From: a virus
Lineage: Duplodnaviria; Heunggongvirae; Uroviricota; Caudoviricetes
Length of the DNA: 64,000 nucleotides
Virus record (IMG/VR): IMGVR_UViG_2576861193_000002
Strand: one strand, 5' to 3'
The notes under the pieces were generated by a model. It did no database searches and had not been told where the DNA came from. It saw only the letters and a list, made by a program, of their open reading frames with translations. Below are positions 4,804 to 63,099 of the stretch, one piece after another. The translations under genes and the position numbers were made by a program. Positions within the stretch are counted from its first letter, which is position 1. Each line of letters starts with the position of its first letter.

Positions 4804-5268
4804 TTACTTTAAACACTGCTCGGTTATGTATTGCTGAGCACCTTCAAGTTGGGCCTGCATCATTACCAGTCGTTCCCGGAGGGTGAAATAATCCCGTTCA
4901 GCGGTGTCTGCCAGTCGGGGGGAGGCTGCATTATCCACGCCGGAGGCGGTGGTGGCTTCACGCACTGACTGACAGACTGCTTTGATGTGCAACCGACGAC
5001 GACCAGCGGCAACATCATCACGCAGAACATCATTTTCAGCTTTCGCATCAGCTAACTCCTTCGTGTATTTTGCATCGAGCGCAGCAACATCACGCTGACG
5101 CATCTGCATGTCAGTAATTGCCGCGTTCGCCAGCTTCAGTTCTCTGGCATTTTTGTCGCGCTGTTCTTTGTAGGCGATGGCGTTATCACGGTAATGATTA
5201 ACACCCCATGACAGGCAGACGACGATGCAGATAACCAGAGCGGAGATAATCGCGGTTACTCTGTTCAT
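4804..5268 (-). CDS. Rz i-spanin (inner membrane spanin)
   Basis: Near-identical to lambda Rz by eye ([15 protein letters not shown]… [41 protein letters not shown]). Confidence 0.9.
4863..5048 (-). CDS. Rz1 o-spanin lipoprotein, embedded in Rz in another frame
   Basis: 61 aa, lipobox VVGC, proline-rich ([15 protein letters not shown]); classic embedded Rz1. Confidence 0.85.
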
Positions 5269-7203: not shown

Positions 7204-8140
7204 TTTTCCTCACATATGTCATATAGTAAAGGATTATATATACCGTTGTTTTGGACGCTCAAACAGCGAATCAGATCAAATAAAACGCACATTTGTTAAC
7301 ATTTACACAAAGTCTGCGTGGGATATTCTGAAAGAATATCCATAATGTGGAGAGAATCTATTGAAGTGCATGGTGCCGGGTGCCTCCCGGTGAACAAAAT
7401 GTTCGTGATACCTGTCGGCGACAGAAAAGGTTAATGGTATCACCCCACCGCACAGGGGGATTCACCATGCAGGAGTTTTCTTAGCAAACTCACTGCGCGC
7501 CCGGCAACTCCCAACCACATAAAATGCGGAGTTTGTGGTATTTATGCATATAACTCGCAGGAATTATCTTAAAAAACTGATGTCGATCCGGATTAAAAAG
7601 AAGCAGGTCATCATCAGATGACTGGAAAAAAGGAAAACAAAAAATACTCATCATACAGTTTTGATTGCAGGGATGAGCCTGCTATGCACAATATGCAGAA
7701 TATAAGCAAGATAAAAATATGCAGGCATATTATTTCGGATTTTGTTATTAACACAACCTTTTTAATAATCATTTGGCATACAATAAACCAGCCCAAAAAG
7801 AACCGCCTAAACAGGCGGTTGGTCAATACAAAGGATGCTTCGTCTTTATTATAGTAATCTGAGGCGTCGGGTGTCTTGTATCAGACAACATATTGTCCCG
7901 CTAAACAGCGAATTACAAACCACCCTGCAATGATCTCTCATCTCATTTTATATGAGTTGACGACATCAGGATAACGCATCATCAGCCCCTGCCAAGAAAT
8001 ATCAAAACTCCCGCCAGCAATGTGTTATCACAATAATGTAAAAAAAACACAGCACCGAAACTATAACTGGTCTCTGTTATAATTTGGAGCAGAAAGACCA
8101 GTTGCCCAACTAGCAGCATTCTCCCCTGCTTTCCTGACGT

Positions 8141-8167
8141 AAAAAAACCGCATTAAGCGGTTTTTTT
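8141..8167. terminator. bidirectional intrinsic terminator downstream of Q (tR'-like)
   Basis: A7-ccgc-attaa-gcgg-T7 perfect hairpin flanked by A and T runs. Confidence 0.6.
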
Positions 8168-8247
8168 ACGATGTCCATGTCTGCAATCCGCCTCGCGATA
8201 CAGCTTTGCGAAGCATAGCAAAATTGAAGCAGTTTATACGTAAGAAA

Positions 8248-8790: not shown

Positions 8791-9077
8791 AAATGACCTT
8801 TCTTTCTCCAGATTTCTTGTGTGCGAAAAACCCCTTCAGCATGCATCAGGCGCAATTCTTCTTTGGTGTAATCGCTGGTTTTTACCCGCCCGTCGATTAG
8901 ATCGTGGCATGAGCTACAGGCTATCGCCGCCTGCATATCGTGTGGTTTTGTCGCTGTTCCGCACGTCCCCGCCAGCCTGTAATGCGCCAGCACAGAGGTT
9001 TCGGGATTGTGATTGCAGTAGCCAGGGATTCTGATCTGGCACATCTGGCCTTTAGCCGCTTTACGTAAATTCACCAT
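8787..9077 (-). CDS. YbcO-like nin-region protein (DUF1364-like, Cys-rich)
   Basis: 96 aa with multiple CxxC/H motifs; translationally coupled to Q. Confidence 0.65.
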   Translation of the reverse strand: MVNLRKAAKGQMCQIRIPGYCNHNPETSVLAHYRLAGTCGTATKPHDMQAAIACSSCHDLIDGRVKTSDYTKEELRLMHAEGVFRTQEIWRKKGHL

Positions 9078-34731: not shown

Positions 34732-34865
34732 CGCAATGACTCCATTTTGTTAATTAACGGAATAATTCTACCATTTTGTGATCTGTGTTGCATTTTATGC
34801 TTATACAAAATGTATATTATAATAAACAAAGCAACAAATACACACAATCTGAGTGGGGTGTACTA

Positions 34866-35084
34866 ATGAAAATGGTAACAATTATCGCTGTTGCGGCTAT
34901 TCTGGTTGGTTGCGCTGACACTAATCGACACAACGGTCATTGTGCAACTAGCGCATACGGTGTCTGCTATGAAAGATGGGTTGATGGTGTAATGGTTCCT
35001 GCCGGGGAAATTTGTCGGGTGTATGATGGCACTGATGGCCATAGTGGCAAGACTAGAGATTGCGGAAGTAAGGAGTGGTATTAA
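34866..35084 (+). CDS. Cys-rich small lipoprotein (candidate receptor-masking / superinfection exclusion)
   Basis: 72 aa; signal peptide + lipobox LVGC; 6 Cys; counter-oriented between tail fibre and J. Confidence 0.55.
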   Translation: MKMVTIIAVAAILVGCADTNRHNGHCATSAYGVCYERWVDGVMVPAGEICRVYDGTDGHSGKTRDCGSKEWY

Positions 35085-36019
35085 TGGGTGCAGGTATATA
35101 TATTGGGCTGAATGACGGACGCCCTGCAATGGAAATAACAAGCGGGTTGCGTGCGTTCTCACACGCTGGAGATTTCAATATTCAAAAGGCCGGGTTTTTG
35201 CAAAGTTTTTCCATAAAGGATTTAACTGGCGGAGATAAGTTTTTAATCCCAAAGGCAGGCGCTTACGCGTTTGAGCTTGACCGGGGCGTTGAAACATATT
35301 TTATATCAGGCTTTAGTGCTTCTGGTGGCACGGCAAGGATTTCAATTAGTGGTGAGAACGCATATTCTGATAGGATCACTAATTTTAGCGGTAGCGTGTT
35401 TGAGATAGCAAAGGCGTCTACTGGTGAGGGTATATTAGTTGCAGATAGCACAGGTTTTGCATCGATAACGACTAACGATACATTGATGTCATGTTTATGG
35501 GTTGGAAGTGTTAGCTTTACTGGGTCTTACACTATGCCAGTTGCTGGCGTTCCTTTCGGTAACTGGAGCAATAGCGGAGTTTCAGTTGAGTTTGACGGAA
35601 ACAATAAATTGATCTGTACAAACACAAACACCTCTTCCACTGGTGACACATATGGATCTGTGGCGATGAATTTGGCTATTTTTAGCAAATCACCGCCATC
35701 ACCTGGCGACGGAATAACCATCATCAATAAAAATAATCAATGCGTGTTTTCAACAAAACAAAGGCCATTGGTTGTTAAGGGATTTATAACGTTATCTAAT
35801 AGTTATCAGAATATTGGTGACGCATTCTTCCCAATATTGAGATGCGGCTTTAATACCAGAGCCATTAAAGCATACAAGGAGCTAAGATACAAAGGCATTA
35901 TGATGTACAATGGGCAGGTGAAAAGCGGAACAGGATCAAGGATTGTCAGGTATGAAATAGGTAACAGGCCGGATTTCTGTATAGGTATGAAGCTACCTTA
36001 TTTGCCAGCAATTTATTAA
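35084..36019 (+). CDS. hypothetical Ser/Thr/Gly-rich protein
   Basis: ~311 aa; ATG overlaps lipoprotein stop, SD aaggag; no recognisable family. Confidence 0.5.
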   Translation: MGAGIYIGLNDGRPAMEITSGLRAFSHAGDFNIQKAGFLQSFSIKDLTGGDKFLIPKAGAYAFELDRGVETYFISGFSASGGTARISISGENAYSDRITNFSGSVFEIAKASTGEGILVADSTGFASITTNDTLMSCLWVGSVSFTGSYTMPVAGVPFGNWSNSGVSVEFDGNNKLICTNTNTSSTGDTYGSVAMNLAIFSKSPPSPGDGITIINKNNQCVFSTKQRPLVVKGFITLSNSYQNIGDAFFPILRCGFNTRAIKAYKELRYKGIMMYNGQVKSGTGSRIVRYEIGNRPDFCIGMKLPYLPAIY

Positions 36020-36059: not shown

Positions 36060-39000
36060 TTACCAAACACCAATAATAATTTTACCACCACTAGGAAGAT
36101 TTACCGTAATGCCGTTATTGTTAATAATTACCCGTCCGTCACTATTGCGTACATCGAAATTTTGATTGCCTTTAACAATGACGTTACCCCTTACGGTGAC
36201 TTCGTTGAATTGCGCCCATCCATCTTTGTTAATCATCCAACCTTTTGAGTCTTGAACAAATACGGTTGACTGGATTTGCTGCGCTATTTTTGCAGTACCG
36301 ATAGATCCGTCTTTAATAAACGCTTCTTTAACATACATTGCATCATTGGTGGTATAGAAAGGTGATGTGTATGTGCCGTTTGCTGCGGTCATCAACACGA
36401 AGCGGTCAACGAGGAAAATACACTGCGATTGAACGTTAGTGCCGCTACCAGTCAGCCCAAGAGACATACCTGTTGCATACTTCATGCCGTTGTTGTCGGT
36501 TGCCAGCTTGATAGAGTACGTCGCATCAACATTACCTTTGAAGTCGGTTAACGCTTTCGACGTCGTCTGTATCGCTGTTGTGTTCCCGTTAACGGTCACT
36601 GTTAGCTGATCGATTTTGCTTGATAATGCCTCGTCAGCCGTCGCCATTGCCTGCGACCATTCTGTAATATTTGAGTTTACAGAATCGAAAGACGCTGAGA
36701 TCTGGCCAAATTTTTCCGCGCTTGATGCTTCATGCGTAGAAAGTGCCGTTGACACCTCTGATACCTTCGAATTAATCGTACTGGTAAGCGATGAGTTAAG
36801 ACTACTGATTGCGTCAGTACGGGCCTTCGTTTCGTCTGCAATAGCCTTATCAATACGGGTTACGTTACTTGTCACCTTACTATCAAGCGTGGAAATTGAT
36901 GCGTTCACTCCGCTGATAGCCTGGGCGCGGGCGCTTGATTCGTCGGCAATAGCCTGATCCAGCCTGCTAACTTCAGATTCAGTGTTGTTTTCAAGCGTGC
37001 TAATACTTGCATTCACTCCACTGATAGCTTCAGTTCTTGCGCTTGTCTCATCTGCAATGGCTTTATCAAGACGGCTTATTCTTGAATCCGTTTTCTTGTC
37101 TAGCGCTGACACTGAGGCATTTACTCCGCTGATAGCCTCGCTGCGTGCGCTGGTTTCGTCTGCAATTGCCCTATCAAGGCGGTTGACGCTTGCTTCCGTC
37201 TTCCTATCAAGATCGGTGATCGATGCGTTTACGGAGCTAATGGCTTCCGCTGTGGCTTTTTTCTCCTCTGCTATAACATTGTCAATACGGTCAATTTGCG
37301 CGTTGGTTTCTTTGCGGCCTTTCTTGTATTGGGCCGTGAGAGTAACCCGCGTGTTGGTTTGAGCAATAGAGTTGTTGATAAGTGCGATTGAGGCGTTTTG
37401 CAGACTTGCTTTAGTCTGATTTATTTCGTCGCTGTTTTTGTCAACGTTATTTTCAACAGTGCCAAGCTCCGCGCTGATGCCCGATATTGCCTGTGCACGG
37501 GCGCTTGATTCATCTGCAATTGCCTGATCAAGACGTTTAACGCTGGCGTTTGTGCTATTTTCAAGCGTTGTTAAATCAGCTTTAACCTCTGTTATTGCGG
37601 CGCTTCTTGCCTGCGTTTCATCTGATATTGCTTTATCAAGACGGGAAACGCTCGCGTCAGTTTTGCTTTCAAGATTGCTTATTGAGGCGTTAACGTCGCT
37701 AATGGCCTGGGTGCGGGCACTGGTTTCATCTGCAACCGCTTGATCCAGTCTGCTTACTTCTGATTCTGTATTGTTTTCAAGTGTGCTAATACTTGCATTC
37801 ACGCTACTGATAGCGTCTGTGCGTGCTTTTGTTTCGTCTGCTATCGCTTTATCAATGCGGTTAATGTTGCTTGTAACTTTGCCGTCAAGCGTGGAAATTG
37901 AGGTATTCACGCCGCTGATGGCTTCAGTTCTTGCACTGGTTTCATCTGCAATTGCCTGATCCAAGCGTTTTACGCTGGCGTCAGTTTTCTTGTCTAGCGT
38001 TGAAATACTTGCATTTACGTCGCTGATGGCTTGAGTCCGCGCGCTAGTCTCGTCAGCGATTGCTTGATCAAGGCGGTTAACGCTTGCGTCAGTTTTCTTA
38101 TCAAGATTGCTTATTGAAGCGTTTACACCGTTAATAGCTTCAGCGCGGGCGCTGGCCTCGTCAGCTACTGCGCGCTGCACGTTAGAAATCTGACCTTTAA
38201 GGTTGGAGTCCATCGTATTCATTTCTGCTGTGATGGTTTCCAGTGATTCCGCTGTCGCTTTTTTCTCTTCAGCGATAACGTTGTCAATGCGGTCGATTTC
38301 CGCTTTAGTCTCTGTCCTGCCTTTCTTGTACTGAGCGGTAAGAGTTACGCGCGTGTTTGTCTGTGCAAGTGAGTTATTAATAAGAGCAAGTGACGCGTTT
38401 TGCAGGCTTGCTTTTGCTTGCGCCAGTTCGCTGCCAACTTTTTCGCTGGACACTTCTAATGAGTCAATTCTTGCCTCATGCTGTCCAATATCATCGGCGT
38501 TTTCCTCAACCTTTTTATAAAGATCTTCCGTTTCTTTTTTCAGTGTGTCCGTATCAGCTTTTATGGCCCCTGTTTCTGTGATTAGGCCGTCCGTATCAAT
38601 CCTCAAATCGTCAGTGATGTTTGTCAGGTTGTCCGTGTCAACCCTCAAATCGTCAGTGATGTTTGTCAGGTTATCAGTTGCAGTTTTGAGGTTGTCGGTA
38701 GCAGTTTTAAGGTCATTTGTAGCGCTTTCGATAAGATCAGCGCGGTCGCCAAGATCTTTAATGTCGCTAATCATCCCCTTAAACTGTTCTGAATTAATTA
38801 CGTCTTTTGTGACGTAGTCGCTAATTTCATCGAAGTTTTCAGTTGGTTTGCCTGATGCCTCAACGAAATCTGACACGCCAAAAGCGTTACGTGTACGAAT
38901 ATAAACGTAATAGGTGTGCCCCGTGTTCATGCCGCCAAAAGTCCACTGATAGCCGCGCCCGGTAAACTGCGCTGATGTGGTTACTTTTGATGGATCTGTG

Positions 39001-44021: not shown

Positions 44022-44372
44022 ATGCAAAAATACAGCTTAGATGTGTGGACTGATAAATGTGAATGGGAATGCATGGGCCTATTTGACACATATGCTGCGG
44101 CGCGTGATGAAGGTCGCGAATTACTTCTCTGTTGGTCTAACGCTCGTGATTTTGATATTACTCCGGTCCAAGTACCGGATAAGGTGGAAGAGATGAACCC
44201 TAAAGATATTGATGTTAGCTTCAATGTTAACTTTGCTGACTCTATGGATCAGTCTTGCCCTGGTGAAATACACGCAAAAGGTTTCCCCGCTGACGATCCA
44301 GAAGCAAAACGCGAATACGAAAAAGCGGCAAAAGATTTCTGTATCGACAATTTGTCTGCGTTCGATAAATAA
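44022..44372 (+). CDS. hypothetical acidic protein (moron cassette gene 2)
   Basis: 116 aa, rich in D/E, 5 Cys; no recognised family. Confidence 0.5.
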   Translation: MQKYSLDVWTDKCEWECMGLFDTYAAARDEGRELLLCWSNARDFDITPVQVPDKVEEMNPKDIDVSFNVNFADSMDQSCPGEIHAKGFPADDPEAKREYEKAAKDFCIDNLSAFDK

Positions 44373-44381
44373 GGCGGCAAC

Positions 44382-44630
44382 ATGGGGCGGCGCAATCACG
44401 GTGATTATGTGTACACGTTGAAACAGGCCGCCCGCCTCATCGGTTATCATGAGCACGAATTTATTGATTTGCTGATCGAGCGCGGGATTTTGTATCAGGT
44501 TTGTTTAACGCTGTACCCGAAAGCTAAGTACCTACAAGAAAAGTTATTCATCATTATGACGGATGAAAACCAGGTCAATCACTCATTCGTCACTGATAAA
44601 GGCGTTAATTATCTGCGTGATAACTTATAG
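44382..44630 (+). CDS. hypothetical protein with HTH-like segment (moron cassette gene 3)
   Basis: 82 aa; …YTLKQAARLIGYHEHEFIDLLIERGIL…. Confidence 0.5.
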   Translation: MGRRNHGDYVYTLKQAARLIGYHEHEFIDLLIERGILYQVCLTLYPKAKYLQEKLFIIMTDENQVNHSFVTDKGVNYLRDNL

Positions 44631-44781
44631 GTGACAGATTATAAAATAGAAGTTTTGGCGCTAATAATAATGGGACTGATAGTATTTGGCGTTCACGCTG
44701 TCGATTGGGACTGGGCGGCGATAGCCAATAACATGGCGCACGCTCACCCAATGAGTTTGATGTACATTAACTACTGACAAG

Positions 44782-45360: not shown

Positions 45361-45529
45361 GATTCCCCCTATAAGTTACATATTGCATACATCTTTACGC
45401 GCTTCTACGCGAAAAATGAGAAATTCATCACAAGAATTATAACCAGTTTACAAAATGGCTTCACATAAGGCGTGACAAGATGTATATAGTAAGCAAGAAG
45501 AAAAAGCAGTACCGACAAAGGGGGGCAAT

Positions 45530-45685
45530 ATGGAACGCTATGTGGTTGTGATGCTGAACAAAGCATTCGAACAGGTGGAAGTTGCGATTGTGAAGGGCTT
45601 TGATGATGCATTCAAATACGGTCAATTTATGATGAATGCGAAGGAAAATGAGTACCGTGATTTCTTCCTAAAAGTAGTCAACTGA
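45530..45685 (+). CDS. hypothetical 51-aa protein (first gene of T5orf172 cassette)
   Basis: Strong SD aaagggggg then ATG; MERYVVVMLNKAFEQVEVAIVKGFDDAFKYGQFMMNAKENEYRDFFLKVVN. Confidence 0.45.
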   Translation: MERYVVVMLNKAFEQVEVAIVKGFDDAFKYGQFMMNAKENEYRDFFLKVVN

Positions 45686-45705
45686 TTGATTGCGTGGGGT
45701 GAGTT

Positions 45706-45960
45706 ATGAAATTGGTAATGATTGGCAAAAACCTGAAAGCTCAGAAAAACGCGCCGGAACATGTAGTTAAAAAAGCAAAGGAACTTTTGAACGCGTTTTT
45801 AAACAAGAATGCGTCACCCAAAAAATTGAAAGACGGTTACGGCTACGCCTTCCGCGCCAATTTAGACTGGCGAGTCTATAGCCAGGATCTGAAGGAGTGG
45901 GTGATTGTTGAACACCATAAATTCAATGAATTGTCTGGCGTTCGCGGTTGCCATAAGTAA
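45706..45960 (+). CDS. hypothetical 84-aa basic protein (weak RelE/ParE-like C-terminal pattern)
   Basis: SD ggggtgag; …GYGYAFRANLDWRVYSQDLKEWVIVEHHKF… is reminiscent of RelE-fold toxins but unconfirmed. Confidence 0.45.
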   Translation: MKLVMIGKNLKAQKNAPEHVVKKAKELLNAFLNKNASPKKLKDGYGYAFRANLDWRVYSQDLKEWVIVEHHKFNELSGVRGCHK

Positions 45961-46047
45961 GGCGGGATATGGATGACGATAAATTCACCCGGCGGGAGAT
46001 CTGGAATATTTAGTTGGTGATTTTCGTGAGGGGATATATCTCGCGGA

Positions 46048-47007
46048 ATGGTCGGATATAAAATGGGTGTGATTATGGCGCGAAAAATGACACATGAAGA
46101 ACATATTGCAGATATAGCAAATGTCAATCCTCGTGTTGATATTTTAGGAGAAATTACAGGCTGCAATGATAAGGTGTCGTGTCGTTGCAGAGTTTGTAAC
46201 CACAAATGGCGTACTACGCCGCACAGCCTTAAGGCTGGCAGGGGCTGCCCCGAATGTAAAAGAACAAAGATAGCACGAATAAAACAACTATCACATAACG
46301 ATCATGTTGCTGCAATTGCTAATGTTAATCCATTTGTTGAAGTGCTAGAAAAAATTGTTAATGTAAAGAAAAAGATCGCATGTCGTTGTAATAATTGCAA
46401 AAACATATGGATGACTACGCCAAATGATCTCAAAAACGGTCACGGCTGTCCGAAATGCTCTGGCGTAGCGAAGCTGTCACATGAAGAGCAGATTGCAGCT
46501 ATTGCGAAAGTTAACCAAAATGTTGATGTAATAGGCAATATTGTTAATGACAAAACAAAAGTATCATGCCGCTGCAAGGCTTGCGGTCATGTGTGGTCGG
46601 CTACGCCTAACGACCTTAAAAATGGGCGCGGCTGCCCGAAATGCGCGAAACGAGGGTTTTTATCCCACGAACACGGAAAACTTTACATCATGGTTGATGA
46701 TCTTGAAGTGCCAACAATGATGAAAATCGGCGTGAGCGTTAAGGAGAACGAGCGAAGAAATAAAGTATTAAAAAGCGCACATAAAGCAGGTGTCAGAATC
46801 CCTGATTTGTATGTCGTGAAAACGTGGGTGGGGCCAACTGAAAAAGTACAAGAATTAGAAAGCACGATGCATAAGGCTTTTAGCAATTATAAAATTAACT
46901 TCCCTGTAAAATTTGATGGCAGTAATGAATTTTTCTACTACAGGCCGGAAGTATTCAGCATGGTAGAAAGTACATACAGTGATATTGTAAATAAAAATGC
47001 GGCATGA
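46048..47007 (+). CDS. T5orf172 / GIY-YIG-like domain protein with three tandem zinc-ribbon repeats
   Basis: 319 aa; three ~60-aa repeats each with CRCxxC…GCPxC; C-terminal LYIMVDD…MMKIGVS GIY-YIG-like motif. Confidence 0.6.
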   Translation: MVGYKMGVIMARKMTHEEHIADIANVNPRVDILGEITGCNDKVSCRCRVCNHKWRTTPHSLKAGRGCPECKRTKIARIKQLSHNDHVAAIANVNPFVEVLEKIVNVKKKIACRCNNCKNIWMTTPNDLKNGHGCPKCSGVAKLSHEEQIAAIAKVNQNVDVIGNIVNDKTKVSCRCKACGHVWSATPNDLKNGRGCPKCAKRGFLSHEHGKLYIMVDDLEVPTMMKIGVSVKENERRNKVLKSAHKAGVRIPDLYVVKTWVGPTEKVQELESTMHKAFSNYKINFPVKFDGSNEFFYYRPEVFSMVESTYSDIVNKNAA

Positions 47008-47047: not shown

Positions 47048-49255
47048 TTATCTTTTTCGTGGCTGTATAATCCCCCCGGGGCGCGTGCTCTGCTCCCTCA
47101 CAACACCCATAGCAACCTTCTTCATCGTCTCTTGCAGTTTGGCGCTGTCCTGCTCGGTCCATCCGTTCTCGGCTGTTATGTTGATGGTAACAGGCATGTT
47201 GATGCCGCCACCGCCGCCAATGTCGCGATTTGGTATTACCCTGCCGTTGTCACCCGGAATCATGTACTGCTCGCCGTTTCGAGATTGGAAGATCTCTGGC
47301 TTGCCGTGCTCGCCAACCCTATAAAGATTATTGCTATTAACCGCACCGCCGTTATAACGAGCGCCAGCAAGCCCAAGCGCCTTAGCCCCAGCCACACCAG
47401 TGGCAAGACTCGTGCCCCCCACGGTCGCCGCTCCGCCCATCGTGGCAACGTTTGCCAGGTATGCAGGAGTGGCCCACGCAGATCCTAATGCAGTAGCCTC
47501 GGCTAGTGCTTTAGCTGTTGCCGCAGCGCTGGCGGCCTCACCGATCAATTGCTGTTTAACCCATTCAGCCCCCATTTGAACAAGTGTACCGATAACGGAG
47601 GAAAGGATTGTATTGCCAATGTTAGCCAGCGCCTGCTGCCAACTTTGAGTGCCGTTAACCAGGCCCACAAGCGCATTTGTTGCAGATCCTCCCATTGCAT
47701 CAACGGTATCACCCAATAGTTTGTAGCTCATTGACTGTGCTTTATATCGCTCCCATTCAATGGAGATCATTTCTTGTGCGTGCGCTCTTTCTTGCTCCTT
47801 CATGTATTGCTCGGTAGCGCCAAGATCTTCCAGCATTTGCTTGCGTATGGTCCATTCATTTTGCGCCTGCTGTATTGGGTCCAGCTCGCCGCGCTTCTGA
47901 TCCAGTGATGAAATCATTTTGTCCCATTTTTCTTGCAGCCTATTGATCGGGTCGTTAATTTCTGCTAGAGTTTCGCGCAATTCATCACCAATTCCCTTCA
48001 TTGCGCCTTTGTATTCAAGCATGGTTATTTTCCCGGCTTTAAAGGCTGCATCTATGGCTTTTTGTGATTCAAGCGCTTTGCGCATTGCTGCTGAATCTTC
48101 GTTGTATGCATCTGAAATGCGCACACCCTGTTCCGCAAGGCGCTCGGCTTCTGATTTGCCGGATTTTTTACCTTTGCCTTTATTACCCTTGCCACCAGGT
48201 TGAGGCTTAAATGTTATGCGACTTACACCAGCTTGCCCCGTGGGGAGAGTGGAAACAAATGGCTGTTCTCCATCGCCAAACCATCCAACCTGTTTTGCTT
48301 GAGCGCGGAACAAACTAAGCCCAGGCACTATACCCTCAAACGCCCCAGCCAATAGCCACAATTTGTCAGTTAATGACGTGCTGTCGCTCGCCAGGGACTT
48401 AAACCAGCCGGATAATATTTGGACTTCACTAGAGATAGCTTGTATACCAGTAACCACCAAATCGGACACGCCAAGCGTTTGATTTAGCGTGTCGATTAGC
48501 AGATCGAAGTTGTTTTTTAGCTCGTTAAATGCCTGATCTGTTGTTGTTGGCAGCTTTGCGAAGTCCTTCTCTATGTCTTCTGCGCCAGCAAGAATTGCGT
48601 TGGTAACATCCTCAGCGGTGAGCTTACCATCAAGCATTCTTGCGCGAAGTTCACCCATCGAGATTCCCATTTGTTTGGATACGCGCCGCCACACCTCTGG
48701 CATGTTTTCAAGTACAGAGTTGTATTCTTCCGCGCGAACAATGCCGCCCGTCAGTGACTGCCCTAACTGGCGAAGTGCGTTTGACATTTCATCTGATGAG
48801 CTACCACCGATACGCCCTATTTTTTGAAGCGAGTCGGTAAGCTGCAATACCTGCTGACTTGTCGCACTGGTATCCTGAAGGCTGGCCTTCAGGCTTTCCC
48901 ACAGCTTCCCGGTGCTTTGAACGCTCATCCCTGTACGATTCGATATCTGAATAATCCCGTCAAAATTCGATTTTGCGTCAGCAATGCCACTCGACAGGCG
49001 CGTCACCCTGGCACGAAGCAGATTTACGTTATCCGCGATCTCCAGGAATTTTTTTGCAGCCATAACCATCATCCCAATGTTCACAGCTTTAGATAAATTA
49101 CTTATTGTGGTGTTAAGTGACTTTACTGATTTATCGGTGCGTTTAGCGCCTTGCTCGATTTTATCAAACGAGTCTTCAGCCTTGCGTTGAGCTACAAGTA
49201 ACCGTTCGGTTTTTGCGTCAACGGTATATTCGATCGTGCCTACATTTGTGGTCAT
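47048..49255 (-). CDS. tail tape measure protein
   Basis: 735 aa, coiled-coil rich, Gly-rich C-terminal region; between tail chaperone and M. Confidence 0.85.
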   Translation of the reverse strand: MTTNVGTIEYTVDAKTERLLVAQRKAEDSFDKIEQGAKRTDKSVKSLNTTISNLSKAVNIGMMVMAAKKFLEIADNVNLLRARVTRLSSGIADAKSNFDGIIQISNRTGMSVQSTGKLWESLKASLQDTSATSQQVLQLTDSLQKIGRIGGSSSDEMSNALRQLGQSLTGGIVRAEEYNSVLENMPEVWRRVSKQMGISMGELRARMLDGKLTAEDVTNAILAGAEDIEKDFAKLPTTTDQAFNELKNNFDLLIDTLNQTLGVSDLVVTGIQAISSEVQILSGWFKSLASDSTSLTDKLWLLAGAFEGIVPGLSLFRAQAKQVGWFGDGEQPFVSTLPTGQAGVSRITFKPQPGGKGNKGKGKKSGKSEAERLAEQGVRISDAYNEDSAAMRKALESQKAIDAAFKAGKITMLEYKGAMKGIGDELRETLAEINDPINRLQEKWDKMISSLDQKRGELDPIQQAQNEWTIRKQMLEDLGATEQYMKEQERAHAQEMISIEWERYKAQSMSYKLLGDTVDAMGGSATNALVGLVNGTQSWQQALANIGNTILSSVIGTLVQMGAEWVKQQLIGEAASAAATAKALAEATALGSAWATPAYLANVATMGGAATVGGTSLATGVAGAKALGLAGARYNGGAVNSNNLYRVGEHGKPEIFQSRNGEQYMIPGDNGRVIPNRDIGGGGGINMPVTINITAENGWTEQDSAKLQETMKKVAMGVVREQSTRPGGIIQPRKR

Positions 49256-49381
49256 GATTGCTACTCCAGTTTTGTGATCTGTGTCTCTATTTTATACAAA
49301 ATGGCTTTACTTCAGCGACTCCATTTTGTATAAGGAAGCCATAGGGAACAGTTAAGAAATCAAACAAAAACGAGGTGAATT

Positions 49382-49561
49382 ATGAAAAGTTTAATCAACA
49401 AAATTCTGGTGGTTGCCATTGCTCTTGCAATCTGTGTGCACATGACCGTGCTTTACTGGCAAGCTCCAAATGCAATGCTCATGATGCAGATCGCAGGTCA
49501 AAAGGCGTTCATCCCTGGCTGGGGTGCGCTGGATGCTTTAATCCGCTGGTTTATGGCTTAA
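49382..49561 (+). CDS. small membrane protein (59 aa)
   Basis: SD gaggtg + ATG; MKSLINKILVVAIALAICVH… with one TM helix. Confidence 0.5.
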   Translation: MKSLINKILVVAIALAICVHMTVLYWQAPNAMLMMQIAGQKAFIPGWGALDALIRWFMA

Positions 49562-49572
49562 AGGTGCTAATT

Positions 49573-49947
49573 ATGAAAAACGTATTAAAAGCCGCGCTGA
49601 TTGGTGTTATTGCTCTGTCGCTCGCTGGGTGTGCAAGATCAACTGATTTTGTTAGGTTGGCTGATAATAAGTTGCAGGCTGGAATGACTTGCGAGCAGGT
49701 TACTAAAATCATGGGTGAGCCTCAAAGGATTGAGTATGACGGTAAGTACAGCTATCACGTATGGTGGTCGGTAACAAGTACGGTAGGTTTTACATACATG
49801 GATGTTGAAGAGTTATCCCCTTCAAGGGTTATAGCGAAGTTTGATAATTGTATTCTGAAAGAATGGAAAGATCGCAGCAAGGCGAAGACTGTATATGGCA
49901 CAATTACTCACAGCTCACCAGGCGCTGCCGTCAAAGATTTCAATTAA
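49573..49947 (+). CDS. lipoprotein (124 aa)
   Basis: Signal peptide + lipobox LAGC; translationally coupled to preceding small ORF. Confidence 0.6.
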   Translation: MKNVLKAALIGVIALSLAGCARSTDFVRLADNKLQAGMTCEQVTKIMGEPQRIEYDGKYSYHVWWSVTSTVGFTYMDVEELSPSRVIAKFDNCILKEWKDRSKAKTVYGTITHSSPGAAVKDFN

Positions 49948-49976
49948 AGAAAGGCCCGGCTAATTCCGGGCTTTTT
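49948..49976. terminator. bidirectional intrinsic terminator
   Basis: gcccgg-ctaatt-ccgggc followed by T5, preceded by A-rich run. Confidence 0.55.
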
Positions 49977-50652
49977 GTTCTTTGGATTTTTTTAGTCTTT
50001 CCAGCACCTCCATAGCCTCCCTCATTCCATCGTCATAAGCCTTTTTATCAAGCAATACATTTGGTCGTTTTTGTTTGTTTCTTGCTTCTTGCGGCGTTTT
50101 GGCGCGTACTGCGGCCCTGTATCCGGTCATTGTCATGCCCCATGCTTCTGATTCAGATAGCCCCAGGTGAGCAACGGCGGAGTAAACATATTCAAGGATG
50201 TCGAATGTTGGCTTGTACTCGCCTTCCTGGGTTGTGACCGTGTCTTCTTCTGGACCGTCACCAATTAAACCGTGATACATACAGTGTTGCGCCAGTGTGA
50301 TAACGTCGCTGGTGGGCATCAACCCAGGTTTTAGTCTCAACTTACCCGAAGGAGTGAAGCTGCATTCGCCCAATAACGGGCCTATTTCGTCCTCTGAGCA
50401 ACATTTCAGGACGTGGATGGACGTTTGCACTAACTCACCATAACAACGCGCCATAATGCGATTGCGGAGGTCTGGATCCGTTGGCAAACGCTGTGGGTAT
50501 TTACCACCGTGCACAGTTGCGAAGTATTCAACTAATTCCCTGTCACTGCCGACCTTAGCCATTGCAGCAAAGCAGGGGTTAAACACATACCGCCTGCCAT
50601 CAACCACAACCGCAAATTGTCCTGTTCGAACATGGATCATAACTGTCACCAT
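49960..50652 (-). CDS. tail assembly chaperone (G/GT-like)
   Basis: 230 aa between major tail and tape measure genes. Confidence 0.5.
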   Translation of the reverse strand: MVTVMIHVRTGQFAVVVDGRRYVFNPCFAAMAKVGSDRELVEYFATVHGGKYPQRLPTDPDLRNRIMARCYGELVQTSIHVLKCCSEDEIGPLLGECSFTPSGKLRLKPGLMPTSDVITLAQHCMYHGLIGDGPEEDTVTTQEGEYKPTFDILEYVYSAVAHLGLSESEAWGMTMTGYRAAVRAKTPQEARNKQKRPNVLLDKKAYDDGMREAMEVLERLKKSKEQKARN

Positions 50653-50693: not shown

Positions 50694-51170
50694 TTACACT
50701 GACGGAACGTCACCTACCGTGACCTTGCCAGCGCTTTCGCATTCAATGGACCAGGTGGACACATCATCGTTAGGGTCTTCTTCTTTGAATGAAGTGCAAA
50801 GGAACGGACCCTCAGTTACGTCAACCGGGGAAACAAGTTTAAGCCACACATAAGGTTGTGATCCGGTAGTTTCACCGGGGCTGACAACGTGGCGCTTCAG
50901 TTCTTTTTGGTTGTGGATTGCTTCGGTGCGGGATACGCCGTCACCAGAGAAAGAAACAGATTTGTAAGTTACCAATGATTCTTTCGTGTAGTCTGCTGAT
51001 TTGTCAGCGGTGGCGTCTGCGGTTTCCCATTCTACGGAAAGCGATTTACCACGCATCATGCCTAACGCTTTATATGCTTCGTCATTAGGTTTCGCATTAG
51101 GGCAAGCGATAGCAAAGAATACAGCCACGTCGCGGCCCAAGAATGCGCCTTTTTCGCAAGTCTGAGACAT
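50694..51170 (-). CDS. major tail (tube) protein
   Basis: 158 aa; position upstream of chaperone and tape measure. Confidence 0.65.
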   Translation of the reverse strand: MSQTCEKGAFLGRDVAVFFAIACPNAKPNDEAYKALGMMRGKSLSVEWETADATADKSADYTKESLVTYKSVSFSGDGVSRTEAIHNQKELKRHVVSPGETTGSQPYVWLKLVSPVDVTEGPFLCTSFKEEDPNDDVSTWSIECESAGKVTVGDVPSV

Positions 51171-61436: not shown

Positions 61437-61907
61437 TTATTCTTTGCGTAAGCACTGCGTTTTGATGTAGTCCTGTAGCCCTACGATCTGAGCGTCTTTC
61501 GTTTTTAGTTGTTCTCTGAGGGATAGATAAGCCGATTCAGCGTCGGGAGTGAGTCTACAGGCGGCTCTATCAATGCTGCTGGCGGTTCCGGAGGAGTCTG
61601 ACACTCGCACGGGTATTGCGTTGACGCGCAGCCTGATAGTGCCGTTATCAATGCCAGTGCGCAGATCGGCAATGTCAGATCTGATAGCTTTAATCTCATC
61701 GTGATACCTCTTATCAAGTTTTGACAGTTCGGCGTTTCGCTCCTTCATCTGCTGAATAGTGTTACTTGCTGTTTTCAGTGCGCCTTGCGTGGTCGTTAAT
61801 TCTTCCTGTAACCTTGTCGCCTCACTCTGGTAATGGCATGTCACGGCTGTAAGACTGGCAATGATGCAAACAACAGCGGCGATAATTAACGCCTTCACCT
61901 TGTCCAT
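61437..61907 (-). CDS. Rz-like i-spanin
   Basis: N-terminal TM + coiled coil periplasmic domain; embedded Rz1. Confidence 0.75.
   Translation of the reverse strand: MDKVKALIIAAVVCIIASLTAVTCHYQSEATRLQEELTTTQGALKTASNTIQQMKERNAELSKLDKRYHDEIKAIRSDIADLRTGIDNGTIRLRVNAIPVRVSDSSGTASSIDRAACRLTPDAESAYLSLREQLKTKDAQIVGLQDYIKTQCLRKE
61505..61699 (-). CDS. Rz1-like o-spanin lipoprotein (embedded)
   Basis: Lipobox LSGC; proline-rich (PPEPPAALIEPP). Confidence 0.7.
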   Translation of the reverse strand: MRLKLSDLTLPICALALITALSGCASTQYPCECQTPPEPPAALIEPPVDSLPTLNRLIYPSENN

Positions 61908-62416
61908 GTTCCCCCCTCGCAACCCATCGAAGGTGCATATTCACCATAGAAAAAGTTTTCCGCCAAAATGCGAGCCGCGATCGCTTCGTCCAGTGAATAA
62001 AACAAGCCAATACATATGCGTTTACCGTCATTGTCGGTAATCCTTACCCGCCATTTAGGCTTGCTCCGCTCTGTTTTGTGGTAGGTAACACCCCTAAATC
62101 CAGATGATGTATGAGGGGTAAGGTGTTTTTTATTCATGCTGTTATGCGTATCGTCTACTTCTCGCAAGTTTATAATCCTGTTATCGTGTTTTATCCCATT
62201 GATATGATCGATATCCTTTTCAGGCCATACTCCATAATGGAAAAACCACGCAAGGCGATGCGCTTTATATCTTCCTATGTATATATATCCGCTTTTATGC
62301 TTAAACCCTGCCACACTACCAGCCTTAATCCTCCCGTGAGGACTAATCTTATAGGTAAAAACACCTGTTTCTGGATCATAGTGCAGCTTTCGTTTTAGCT
62401 CATCATCACTTTTCAT
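61895..62416 (-). CDS. HNH homing endonuclease (HNH_3-type), paralog of 41236-41802
   Basis: 173 aa; motif IDHINGIKHDNRIINLR; inserted between endolysin and Rz. Confidence 0.75.
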   Translation of the reverse strand: MKSDDELKRKLHYDPETGVFTYKISPHGRIKAGSVAGFKHKSGYIYIGRYKAHRLAWFFHYGVWPEKDIDHINGIKHDNRIINLREVDDTHNSMNKKHLTPHTSSGFRGVTYHKTERSKPKWRVRITDNDGKRICIGLFYSLDEAIAARILAENFFYGEYAPSMGCEGGTWTR

Positions 62417-62897
62417 TAGTTACGCCCCATTCACAAACAGCGCGTTCAATATCGCGTCGATTTTTTAATCCCTGTATATATCGCCCATTATCATATACCC
62501 AGCGATCCAACTCCTTACACGCCCCCATAAAGTCGCCTTTATTTATTTTTTTTAACAAGGTTGATTTTTTGAAAGCGTCAACCCCGATATTGTATGAAAA
62601 GCTAATTAGCGCGGCGCGTTGGTAGTCATTCATGTCAACTTTTACATAACGATCGACCGCCTTTTTGTAAACGGCTAAGTGTTTTTGTAAAAGTCTCTCG
62701 CATTCATCAGGTGTGTATCTCTTACCAGGGACAACATCAGGGCCGGTTATGCCATTGCATACAGTTAGCACGCCTCCGGTATCGTAATAAGGCTCGTAAG
62801 CCGTACCCTCAACCCATACAAGCAAAACAGATGCAATGGCTAACGTTCCACCAGCCGCCGCCTTAGTTAGTCGGTTTTTCAGCGATTGGCTAATCAT
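62406..62897 (-). CDS. endolysin (lysozyme-like, N-terminal signal-anchor)
   Basis: 163 aa from MISQSLKN; hydrophobic N-terminus then lysozyme-like core resembling the prophage-1 endolysin. Confidence 0.8.
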   Translation of the reverse strand: MISQSLKNRLTKAAAGGTLAIASVLLVWVEGTAYEPYYDTGGVLTVCNGITGPDVVPGKRYTPDECERLLQKHLAVYKKAVDRYVKVDMNDYQRAALISFSYNIGVDAFKKSTLLKKINKGDFMGACKELDRWVYDNGRYIQGLKNRRDIERAVCEWGVTNEK

Positions 62898-62898
62898 G

Positions 62899-63099
62899 TT
62901 ACTTATTCCCCATTCGCGCGTCGTGTTCCTCTTGCGCTCGCTTGTTCTCCTGTGATTTGAAATAATAGTTAACGGCAAATGTGCCAATGGTTGATAAGAT
63001 ACCCACAAAGACGGCAACGTCATTGATGGTTATCGCGCCGAAAAAAGCAGTTACGGCCCCAGTCACATACGCACACGCCGCCCGTATTCTGTCGAACAT
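62899..63099 (-). CDS. holin
   Basis: 66 aa, two TM segments, charged C-terminus; SD ggagg; stop overlaps endolysin start. Confidence 0.7.
   Translation of the reverse strand: MFDRIRAACAYVTGAVTAFFGAITINDVAVFVGILSTIGTFAVNYYFKSQENKRAQEEHDARMGNK

Follow-up and report, generated by a model that had tools for sequence, protein, structure and literature searches.

A counter-oriented cassette for two predicted envelope proteins beside the tape measure gene of an mEpimmI prophage, a candidate superinfection exclusion moron

What are two small genes doing inside the tail region of a prophage, on the strand opposite to the tail operon that surrounds them? They occupy nt 49270–49976 of the window, by which we mean the whole 64,000-nt stretch of viral DNA analysed here (IMG/VR record IMGVR_UViG_2576861193_000002), and encode a 59-aa protein (hereafter TM59) and a 124-aa protein. 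An earlier note on this DNA took them for a superinfection exclusion module. A moron is a self-contained accessory unit of transcription lodged in the late operon of a phage (Juhala et al. 2000; PMC3594210), and the best explanation, to which we give a probability of roughly 0.5, is that the cassette is a moron in a conserved slot whose envelope products exclude other phages.

A slot with interchangeable cargo beside the tape measure gene

Both ORFs proved to be genuine genes at the positions assigned to them in the earlier note, on the + strand between the DUF6246 and tape measure genes of the − strand (Table 1), so that the counter-orientation to the tail operon described there also holds. 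The dN/dS values (0.06–0.23 across both genes and for the 124-aa gene, 0.18 for the TM59 gene against a relative with 68% identity) point to purifying selection, and a reading as non-coding ORFs was rejected on this ground. The window derives from an E. coli prophage of the mEpimmI (mEp021-like) group of coliphages. Genes 86 and 85 of phage mEp013, annotated as hypothetical only, share 98.9% identity with the cassette, the TM59 product is 100% identical to that of mEp013_86, and the tape measure gene shares 94–99% nucleotide identity with its mEp013 counterpart. The GC content of the cassette (44.0%) and of the intergenic region (35.7%) differs modestly from that of the flanking tail genes (48.6–49.8%), and a base composition unlike that of the neighbouring genes is a mark of morons. 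As for the proposed placement between chaperone and tape measure genes, the tape measure flank was confirmed by its PF20155 match, whereas the chaperone role of the DUF6246 gene, which lies downstream of the tail tube gene (50694–51170), is inferred from position only; a sequence comparison of DUF6246 with the PDB found no relative.

Table 1 Positions of the cassette genes, their control sequences and the flanking tail genes in the window.
Feature	Position	Strand	Remarks
Tape measure protein gene, 735 aa, left slot flank	47048–49255	−	PF20155 TMP_3, E 4e-52
Conserved upstream element TTTTGTGATCTGTGT	49270–49284	+	between tape measure RBS and inverted repeat
Perfect 13-bp inverted repeat TTATACAAAATGG / CCATTTTGTATAA	arms 49292–49304, 49321–49333	.	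brackets −35-like hexamer
Promoter-like hexamers TTTACT (49306–49311), 17 nt, TATAAG (49329–49334)	49306–49334	+	sigma-70 match 9/12
TM59 gene, 59-aa bitopic membrane protein	49382–49561	+	ORF; RBS GAGGTG at 49372–49377
124-aa lipoprotein gene	49573–49947	+	RBS AAGGTG; 11-nt gap after TM59 stop
Hairpin terminator	49949–49976	.	scored on both strands; annotated T16 in mEp013
DUF6246 gene, 230 aa, right slot flank	49960–50652	−	PF19759, E 9e-56

The slot was surveyed in 46 related IMG/VR viral contigs. It was occupied and counter-oriented in every one. Its cargo comprised at least 11 gene families, in no fewer than 12 arrangements; most of the products are secreted proteins, lipoproteins or membrane proteins, and the genes stand behind a conserved control region. 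Variable slot content was also found in mEp021, MagusPhagus, mEp010, mEp515 and E. coli prophages; in the distant DUF6246 phage L073 the tape measure gene follows DUF6246 directly, without a slot. The cassette itself is present in some of these phages and absent or replaced in close relatives, as is typical of morons; it has a clear terminator of its own, and its putative promoter is a conserved 9/12 match lacking the final T of the −10 hexamer. Because the cargo is interchangeable, mostly of envelope type and always counter-oriented, we conclude with high confidence that this is a moron occupying a cargo hot-spot and not a part of the tail. Comparative genomics of the chaperone/tape-measure junction had been proposed earlier as a check, with homologues serving as essential tail components as the outcome that would speak against exclusion; what emerged was an accessory unit, replaced by unrelated cargo in close relatives, and an essential tail component was rejected since the slot cargo varies.

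Admittedly, the genes sit within the tail operon beside the tape measure gene, and the pairing of an inner-membrane protein and an outer-membrane lipoprotein bears a superficial likeness to i-spanin and o-spanin. It is nevertheless highly improbable, and largely refuted, that the cassette serves tail assembly or lysis of the phage itself, whether as an accessory factor of the tape measure or tail or as a spanin-like pair: most close relatives do without the cassette, it is counter-oriented to the late operon, its products are exported, and the prophage already has a canonical Rz/Rz1 pair beside holin and endolysin (61437–61922 and 61505–61717, the proline-rich lipoprotein gene being embedded). 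Location in the tail operon, a periplasmic part of 33 residues in TM59 and a globular lipoprotein also set the cassette apart from Rz/Rz1 spanins, which belong to the lysis cassette and combine an i-spanin having a long coiled coil in the periplasm with an o-spanin that is a short, proline-rich lipoprotein. In mEp021, whose virion proteins were mapped by mass spectrometry (PMC11893012), the slot gene is still annotated as hypothetical, which counts against slot products as virion or tail parts.

Slot cargo did not co-vary with tape measure type, nor did it co-vary with the receptor, as mEp021 (OmpA) and mEp010 (LamB) carry the same cargo (receptors from PMC11893012). A cargo tied to either was accordingly rejected, and over all its cargo the slot gives no indication of self-exclusion specific for a receptor or a tape measure.

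Two predicted envelope proteins

TM59 has a single hydrophobic stretch (residues 8–26) with K2 and K7 on its N side, and is predicted by the positive-inside rule to adopt an N-in/C-out topology; the topology prediction thus bore out the single-TM protein described earlier. Its C-terminal tail GQKAFIPGWGALDALIRW is conserved, and 33 residues are predicted to be periplasmic. The AF2 model contains three helices (2–27, 29–43 and 47–58) at a pLDDT of 72. A tblastn search of 50,697 phage records matched mEp013 alone, while a word-seeded search of 5.8 billion proteins, run both with the sequence alone and with a profile, returned three close clusters, to which Pfam, PHROGs, NCBIfam, PADLOC and the PDB added nothing. 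These only relatives adjoin tape measure genes 50–51% identical to that of the window, and lie on the other side of the tape measure gene, in a different, satellite-like element at the eut locus. In this slot TM59 occurs in the window, mEp013 and L013 only; the small protein is found alone or with a different, 123-aa secreted protein.

The 124-aa product carries a signal peptide (residues 1–19) and the lipobox LAGC with Cys20 and Ala at +2, in agreement with its earlier assignment as a lipoprotein. The pattern [LVI][ASTVI][GAS]C is matched by MKNVLKAALIGVIALSLAG followed by the Cys, which is unchanged in 8/8 aligned homologues. Under the Lol rule, Ala at +2 leads to outer-membrane sorting, and an envelope location of both cassette products is very likely. 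In the mature lipoprotein Cys40 and Cys93 are invariant, which suggests a periplasmic disulfide. Its core is BamE/OsmE/BLIP-like (alpha-alpha-beta-beta-beta), a fold of the protein-binding type, and conforms to the BamE fold. In structure its neighbours are OsmE, BamE, BLIP-like inhibitors and BtiO, a T6SS immunity protein of Bacteroides; remotely related in sequence are BamE/DUF3192-repeat proteins. Against Pfam BamE (SmpA_OmlA, PF04355) it scored 17.9 bits, below the gathering threshold of 23.2 and over residues 32–50 only, and against the OsmE model 14 bits, far under the cut-off of 65. An exhaustive HMMER search of 1.84 billion representatives gave one further true homologue (46% identity) and BamE-type repeat proteins, and the matches of a BFVD fold search were weak and uninformative. 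Elsewhere the lipoprotein gene occurs alone or behind genes for a TagO/VasI-like lipoprotein, a 138-aa secreted protein or other small ORFs. The coupling of the two genes claimed in the earlier note is therefore not obligate, and an obligate two-gene system was rejected, as either gene is found with other partners.

The BamE/OsmE/BLIP fold is generic and would also suit roles in stress, envelope homeostasis or immunity, which somewhat weakens the exclusion reading. The cassette might instead be a lysogenic-conversion unit without phage exclusion, its envelope proteins changing host physiology by conferring tolerance to outer-membrane or osmotic stress (BamE/OsmE-like), by inhibiting a periplasmic enzyme (BLIP-like), or by giving immunity to type VI effectors, colicins or other envelope toxins. 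None of the structural neighbours is a known exclusion protein, slot cargo is independent of receptor and tape measure type, and in many relatives the lipoprotein follows a lipoprotein named "T6SS-associated TagO" by PGAP. However, that partner scores far under the TIGR03360 VasI cut-off (47 vs 124 bits), T6SS genes are absent nearby, the TM59 relatives are linked to tape measure genes, and slot position and Lpp-like regulation indicate phage–phage conflict. Taken together, these conversion options appear rather unlikely.

Control sequences around the cassette

The 15-mer TTTTGTGATCTGTGT occurs twice in the window against 0.16 matches expected, its identical second copy (34774–34788) lying upstream of an Lpp-type lipoprotein gene (34867–35084), and the upstream regions of the cassette and of this gene have TTTTGTGATCTGTGT...ATACAAAATG in common. 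The TGTGAT of this element is conserved in 45 of the 46 related slots. Speculatively, TGTGA might be read as a CRP half-site lookalike about 61 bp upstream of the predicted start, with a poor second half-site. The arms of the inverted repeat show no variation in an alignment of 10 relatives; the repeat was found in 41 of the 46 slots, and folding of its single-stranded RNA gave −14.3 to −14.5 kcal/mol (z about −3.6). TTTACT-17-TATAAG, named as the cassette promoter in the earlier note, is the best sigma-70 match of the intergenic region, and the same hexamer layout and 17-nt spacing recur in 41 of the 46 related slots (−10 TATAAA in 29, TATAAG in 12). A stricter promoter scan did not list this candidate because its −10 lacks the conserved final T. 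By consensus the putative promoter would be weak, and it is its conservation that supports it.

Twelve matches to the half-site of the repeat were counted in the mEp013 genome against 2.05 expected, a number reached in 0 of 100 shuffles. One copy of this operator-like motif lies directly 5′ of a good −35/−10 pair just past the cI terminator, and the motif is thus also present at the early promoter beside cI; a degenerate inverted pair precedes cI, and an inverted pair precedes ninG. At the cassette the −35 lies between the two arms, which also cover parts of the spacer and the −10, a geometry of the repression type, and since the motif brackets the promoter the cassette may be repressed in the lysogen. 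It could then be an early lytic-cycle unit under immunity control, the TATACAAAATG(G) repeat serving as operator for a repressor or Cro-like protein; switched on after infection or induction, such a unit could shield the infected cell from secondary injection or stop progeny adsorbing to debris, as with T4 Imm/Sp and T5 Llp. We regard this as distinctly unlikely: no operator has been defined in these phages, the motif could instead serve an activator or act as a promoter element of the UP type, the exact repeat is missing from 5/46 slots, and classical morons and the Lpp gene are assumed to be expressed in the lysogen.

At the other end of the cassette, the hairpin terminator overlaps the final codons of the DUF6246 gene. 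Scored on both strands, it is bidirectional as formerly described but asymmetric, with a strong face on the cassette strand (−19.1 kcal/mol, z −3.6, followed by a U-run) and a weaker one on the tail-operon strand (−13.7 kcal/mol, z −2.35, with a poor U-run). Late tail-operon transcription would pass this weaker face by antitermination.

Proposed role and comparison with known systems

Superinfection exclusion is the most likely role of the cassette, and by analogy we put it at slightly less than even odds as the actual function. TM59 and the lipoprotein would stop DNA delivery by other phages at the cell envelope. TM59 might act on the periplasmic side of the inner membrane by disturbing the channel formed by the incoming tape measure protein, and so resemble HK97 gp15, T4 Imm or P22 SieA in function. 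The lipoprotein might attach to an incoming tail protein or to a partner in the outer membrane or periplasm, a function comparable to that of T5 Llp, Cor, the mEp Lpp proteins or TP-J34 Ltp. We favour exclusion because the slot is that of a proven exclusion moron, HK97 gene 15, because the upstream region resembles that of the Lpp-type gene, and because the only relatives of TM59 adjoin tape measure genes. A bolder and doubtful version would make the junction a dedicated, rapidly shuffling "envelope armour" locus, in which the TATACAAAATGG repeat, as a single conserved promoter/operator module under phage control, drives interchangeable exclusion genes and TM59 is a new DNA-entry blocker specific for a tape measure family. 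Such a blocker would explain why the TM59 relatives of the satellite-like element adjoin tape measure genes with 50% identity, and that element at the eut locus could use its TM59 relative against its helper's kin.

Among the phages of a human faecal collection, the mEpimmI group equalled the lambdoid phages in frequency (PMC11893012). Prophages of this group are widespread in E. coli, and their slot genes are all annotated as "hypothetical". If the cargo does serve exclusion or envelope modification, the slot would amount to a catalogue of at least 11 uncharacterised envelope-acting families of phage conflict, easily located at the DUF6246/tape measure junction by the conserved control region of 75 bp that precedes it; should no phenotype exist, this is one more accessory cassette. 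TM59 is a second, unrelated small membrane protein at the position of HK97 gp15, and the two together would permit a comparative test of how tape-measure-mediated DNA entry is blocked.

HK97 gene 15 is the moron for gp15, a protein of superinfection exclusion that is related to YebO (Cumby et al. 2012, summarised in PMC3594210), and its placement at the chaperone/tape measure junction, which the earlier note gave from recall, is correct according to PMC3594210 and the HK97 record. Gene 15 and the cassette share this slot between tail assembly chaperone and tape measure genes, each has its own terminator, and both are accessory and missing from relatives. Like gp15, TM59 is a small protein of about 60 residues that spans the inner membrane once, by an N-terminal TM helix, and its gene too lies between those at the chaperone and tape measure positions. 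However, BLASTP of TM59 against gp15 gave no alignment at E ≤ 100, and a homologue of gp15 was rejected for this reason. TM59 is predicted N-in/C-out whereas the prediction for gp15 is the opposite topology, its charged C-tail being cytoplasmic. Gene 15 runs in the direction of the tail genes and the cassette against it, and the cassette has a second gene, for the lipoprotein. The label "gp15-type" given to the membrane protein was therefore abandoned.

Neither cassette protein matched a known exclusion or defence family (such as Cor, Llp, Imm, Sp, SieA or Ltp) in Pfam, PHROGs, NCBIfam and PADLOC profiles; phrog_18614 and phrog_3135 are of "unknown function" in PHROGs. Cor and T5 Llp are the classical receptor-blocking lipoproteins. 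Closer to the cassette are the Lpp proteins of the mEpimmI phages, of type A in mEp021 and type C in mEp010, of which type C excludes phages (PMC11893012). Like the 124-aa protein they are prophage-encoded outer-membrane lipoproteins from counter-oriented units in the tail region of the same phage group, and their upstream control sequences are partly common to the cassette. They differ in locus, the Lpp-type gene of the window lying beside J and the tail fibre gene, in length (72–82 aa) and in sequence, which is unrelated to that of the 124-aa lipoprotein; with its BamE-like fold, the latter stands outside the set of lipoproteins assayed in PMC11893012. It has in common with BamE, OsmE and BLIP the alpha-alpha-beta-beta-beta core and the GMTxxQVxxxMGxP motif, and differs from BamE and OsmE in an extra C-terminal segment, in the conserved Cys pair and in being phage-borne. 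As Ltp of TP-J34 reportedly shows, a lipoprotein that targets the tape measure protein can block its insertion. In phage T4, Imm is a membrane protein that blocks DNA entry and Sp a membrane-anchored periplasmic inhibitor of the tail lysozyme. T4 Imm/Sp and TP-J34 Ltp have unrelated sequences and belong to other phage types and hosts, and the likeness to the cassette is one of functional analogy, an envelope barrier of two components in which a small inner-membrane protein would act together with a periplasm-facing one.

Coding content and surroundings of the cassette

The E. coli chromosome next to the prophage matches complete E. coli genomes at 100% identity across 24 kb, and their annotation of the matching region includes recE and intR. 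The prophage shares 88-93% identity, in reverse orientation, with phage mEp013 (PP180002.1), a member of the mEpimmI group of Nus-dependent, non-lambdoid coliphages (PMC11893012). The two plus-strand ORFs reported in the earlier note, encoding a 59-aa single-TM protein and a 124-aa lipoprotein, were indeed present between the DUF6246 gene and the tape measure gene. Their mEp013 counterparts, at 98.9% nucleotide identity across the cassette, are mEp013_86 and mEp013_85, each annotated only as a 'hypothetical protein'. The dN/dS values were low for the small ORF (0.18 against a 68%-identical relative) and the lipoprotein (0.06-0.23 against three relatives), and therefore both are coding.

The 59-aa protein has a single hydrophobic stretch (residues 8-26) preceded by K2 and K7, for which the positive-inside rule gives a predicted N-in/C-out topology. 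Its AF2 model contains three helices (2-27, 29-43 and 47-58; pLDDT 72), and the C-terminal 20 residues (GQKAFIPGWGALDALIRW) are invariant in three aligned sequences, the most distant being 68-69% identical. The lipoprotein carries a textbook lipobox (LAG|C20) with Ala at +2, which implies sorting to the outer membrane, and C40 and C93 of the mature protein are invariant as far as a 46-48%-identical homologue. Its match to Pfam BamE was below threshold (17.9 vs 23.2 bits), an exhaustive HMMER search of 1.84 billion representatives returned only one further homologue together with BamE/DUF3192-repeat proteins, and viral structure matches were uninformative. The fold is a small protein-binding fold from which alone the binding partner is not deducible. 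A spanin-pair reading of the cassette was ruled out by the canonical Rz/Rz1 pair in the lysis cassette, where a 173-aa HNH-type endonuclease-like ORF lies between the endolysin and Rz/Rz1 genes.

Positions of the cassette, its control elements and related features (window positions unless another record is named)
Feature	Position	Strand	Remark
E. coli chromosome	8-32 kb		left of prophage
Prophage	about 32.5-64 kb		
Lpp-type lipoprotein gene	34867-35084		
Cassette between J and tail fibre gene	34867-36019	+	
Repeats in J-like gene	36775-38275	-	
Cassette between M and L	44022-44777	+	
Cassette between tape measure gene and minor tail gene M	45530-47007	+	
Zinc-ribbon protein gene	46048-47007	+	319 aa; repeats at 46088, 46289, 46475
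Tape measure gene	47048-49255	-	PF20155, E 4e-52
13-bp inverted repeat	49292-49304, 49321-49333		perfect
Promoter-like TTTACT-17-TATAAG	49306-49334		9/12
59-aa ORF	49382-49561	+	upstream GAGGTG
124-aa lipoprotein ORF	49573-49947	+	upstream AAGGTG; start 11 nt past stop of 59-aa ORF
Terminator	49949-49976	both	asymmetric
DUF6246 gene	49960-50652	-	E 9e-56
Tail tube gene	50694-51170	-	PF06199
Rz/Rz1 spanin genes	61437-61922, 61505-61717		
HNH-type ORF	61895-62416	-	
Endolysin gene	62406-63023		
TATACAAAATG(G) sites, window	49292-49333, 45447-45457, 34802-34812		
TATACAAAATG(G) sites, mEp013 (L007)	9674, 17704/17772, 6434, 10140, about 8831-8880		
TagO-like lipoprotein gene, L004	3608-4267		
59-aa protein homologue, eut-locus element	8001-8177 or 5001-5177		L075-L078 and L008

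A moron in a hypervariable cargo slot

With DUF6246 as bait we retrieved 59 viral contigs, 46 of which were mEpimmI-like and were scored for the slot between DUF6246 and the tape measure gene. The gap measured 640-1270 bp; it was never empty, and all 46 contigs carried ORFs on the opposite strand. At least 11 cargo families in at least 12 arrangements were found. A 138-aa secreted protein stood alone in 13 contigs, as it does in mEp021, MagusPhagus and mEp010. Nine contigs had a TagO/VasI-like lipoprotein ahead of the 124-aa lipoprotein, seven a 54-aa TM protein ahead of a 100-aa two-TM protein, and seven a TagO-like protein ahead of one of 106 aa. A 117-aa secreted protein was the sole cargo in two contigs and in mEp515, and it also occurred in further combinations; a 165-aa secreted protein and a 245-aa lipoprotein were single cases. 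A signal peptide, lipobox or TM segment is present in most of the cargo proteins. The 59-aa gene occurred in 0/46 of these contigs; its sole occurrences were in the window, in mEp013 and in the Logan contig L013. Cargo tracked neither the receptor, as mEp021 (OmpA) and mEp010 (LamB) share the 138-aa protein, nor the tape measure type.

In L073, a distant DUF6246 phage, the tape measure gene directly follows DUF6246, which supports both a chaperone-like position for DUF6246 and the slot as an insertion hot-spot. GC content is 44% in the cassette and 36% in the intergenic region, against 49-50% in the flanks. Variable cargo among relatives, slotless L073, lower GC and the recombination boundary described below together establish the cassette as a moron in a hypervariable slot, which strongly supports the proposal of the earlier note and extends it from one cassette to a cargo hot-spot. 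An essential tail role is excluded by the same observations.

The two genes are not an obligate pair, contrary to the 'coupled module' first proposed. The lipoprotein gene stands by itself in L009. Elsewhere it is preceded by other cargo: the 138-aa protein in L010 and L024, the TagO-like lipoprotein in L004, L005 and nine viral contigs, and a pair of small ORFs in L011. A 46-48%-identical version follows two different ORFs in the divergent phage L014. In every case the lipoprotein gene was the one adjoining the terminator. Conversely, P0002 and P0020, relatives with 63-68% identity to the 59-aa protein, occur without the lipoprotein. Their genes follow, at a distance of 465-530 nt and in the same direction, a tape measure homologue (732-733 aa, 50-51% identical to that of the window). 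The element concerned, about 10 kb long, sits beside eutA/eutH in E. coli contigs. It also has genes for an AlpA-like HTH protein, an HNH protein, a peptidyl-prolyl isomerase, an Sf6-type small terminase and an HTH_3 regulator, and no capsid or further tail genes were seen in the retrieved stretches. The element resembles a phage satellite, or a cryptic element, with its own tape measure gene. Since the rare 59-aa family adjoins related tape measure genes in two architectures, on opposite sides, a functional link to these genes is suggested, albeit from no more than two independent contexts.

Identity to mEp013 is 94-99% for the cassette and tape measure gene and 71-84% on the DUF6246 side. 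The fall, from 98% to about 80%, occurs within the 3' part of DUF6246 and indicates a recombination boundary near 50100. At least four length and sequence types of tape measure protein (about 735, 780, 960 and 1047 aa; L016-L063) exist in the group, and slot cargo is reshuffled among them. The commonest lipoprotein cargo is the TagO-like protein (about 204-219 aa; L004, L005, L006 and 17 IMG/VR slots). PGAP calls this protein, which is borne in a siphophage tail operon, 'type VI secretion system-associated protein TagO'; it scored only 47 bits against TIGR03360 VasI (cut-off 124).

The late region as a whole is a mosaic of minus-strand tail genes and plus-strand cargo, with at least three more counter-oriented cassettes interrupting the tail module. 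One includes a 72-aa Lpp-type lipoprotein (MKMVTIIAVAAILVGC...). Another encodes a 319-aa protein with three zinc-ribbon repeats of about 62-67 aa and a C-terminal domain, standing where mEp013 has the unrelated 436-aa mEp013_88; its L013 homologue gave weak DUF4379/CapR Pfam matches. In the 1727-aa J-like host-specificity protein, a 108-nt (36-aa) unit of the type ...RLDQAIADETSARTQAISDVNASISTLDKKTDASV... occurs in at least nine tandem copies, and variable-length repeats in the J-like region have been mentioned for mEpimmI phages (PMC11893012).

Control region and recurrent motif

The promoter proposed in the earlier note is the best sigma-70 match of the intergenic region, but it was not listed by a stricter scanner and its -10 lacks the final T. 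The terminator was detected on both strands as claimed, although unequally: the cassette strand has a value of -19.1 kcal/mol (z -3.6) and a U-rich sequence after the hairpin, the tail-operon strand a value of -13.7 kcal/mol (z -2.35) and a poor U tract. This asymmetry fits the halting of cassette transcripts while late transcription, if antiterminated, would pass on to the tape measure gene.

The 75 bp upstream of the cassette are conserved in all relatives examined, independent of cargo (alignment A1, 10 relatives). They contain the inverted repeat TTATACAAAATGG / CCATTTTGTATAA, with its arms on either side of the -35 hexamer and reaching into the spacer and -10; the repeat and the 17-nt hexamer spacing are kept in 41/46 slots. 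Similar elements lie upstream of the Lpp-type lipoprotein gene (TTTTGTGATCTGTGT...TTATACAAAATG) and of the counter-oriented cassette starting at 45530 (ACAAAATGGCTTCAC-N-17-TATATA). In mEp013, the half-site TATACAAAATG (at most one mismatch) gave 12 matches against 2.05 expected, a number reached in 0/100 shuffles. One copy immediately precedes a good TTGACT-17-TATATT promoter just past the cI terminator; inverted pairs lie upstream of ninG and, in degenerate form, upstream of cI. Sites of the form TATACAAAATG(G) lie at transcription-unit boundaries, where many immediately precede a -35 hexamer or are arranged in inverted pairs, the vicinity of cI included. We found no prior description of the motif, and no defined operators, in the literature consulted on these phages. 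It may be bound by the phage repressor or by some other regulator and is a candidate for an operator or an activator site, and so the cassettes may be either lysogen-expressed or early lytic genes. The slot-wide cargo diversity and this operator-like motif are the aspects most worth follow-up.

Comparison with known exclusion systems

Exclusion has been shown for two further lipoproteins, one of type A from mEp021 and one of type C from mEp010 (PMC11893012), and mEp013 carries a type-C copy, mEp013_104. Superinfection exclusion is, by analogy, the most likely function of the cassette, with a probability of about 0.45, somewhat short of even odds; in its favour are the position, the envelope targeting, a control region resembling that of a tested exclusion gene, and the linkage to tape measure genes. 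HK97 gene 15, a moron encoding a 62-aa inner-membrane exclusion protein (PMC3594210), does lie between chaperone and tape measure genes, as the earlier note had it. Its product resembles the 59-aa protein in slot, size and single TM helix, but the two have no sequence in common and opposite predicted topologies, and the label 'gp15-type' is not supported. Gene 15 is co-directional with the tail genes, whereas the cassette is counter-oriented.
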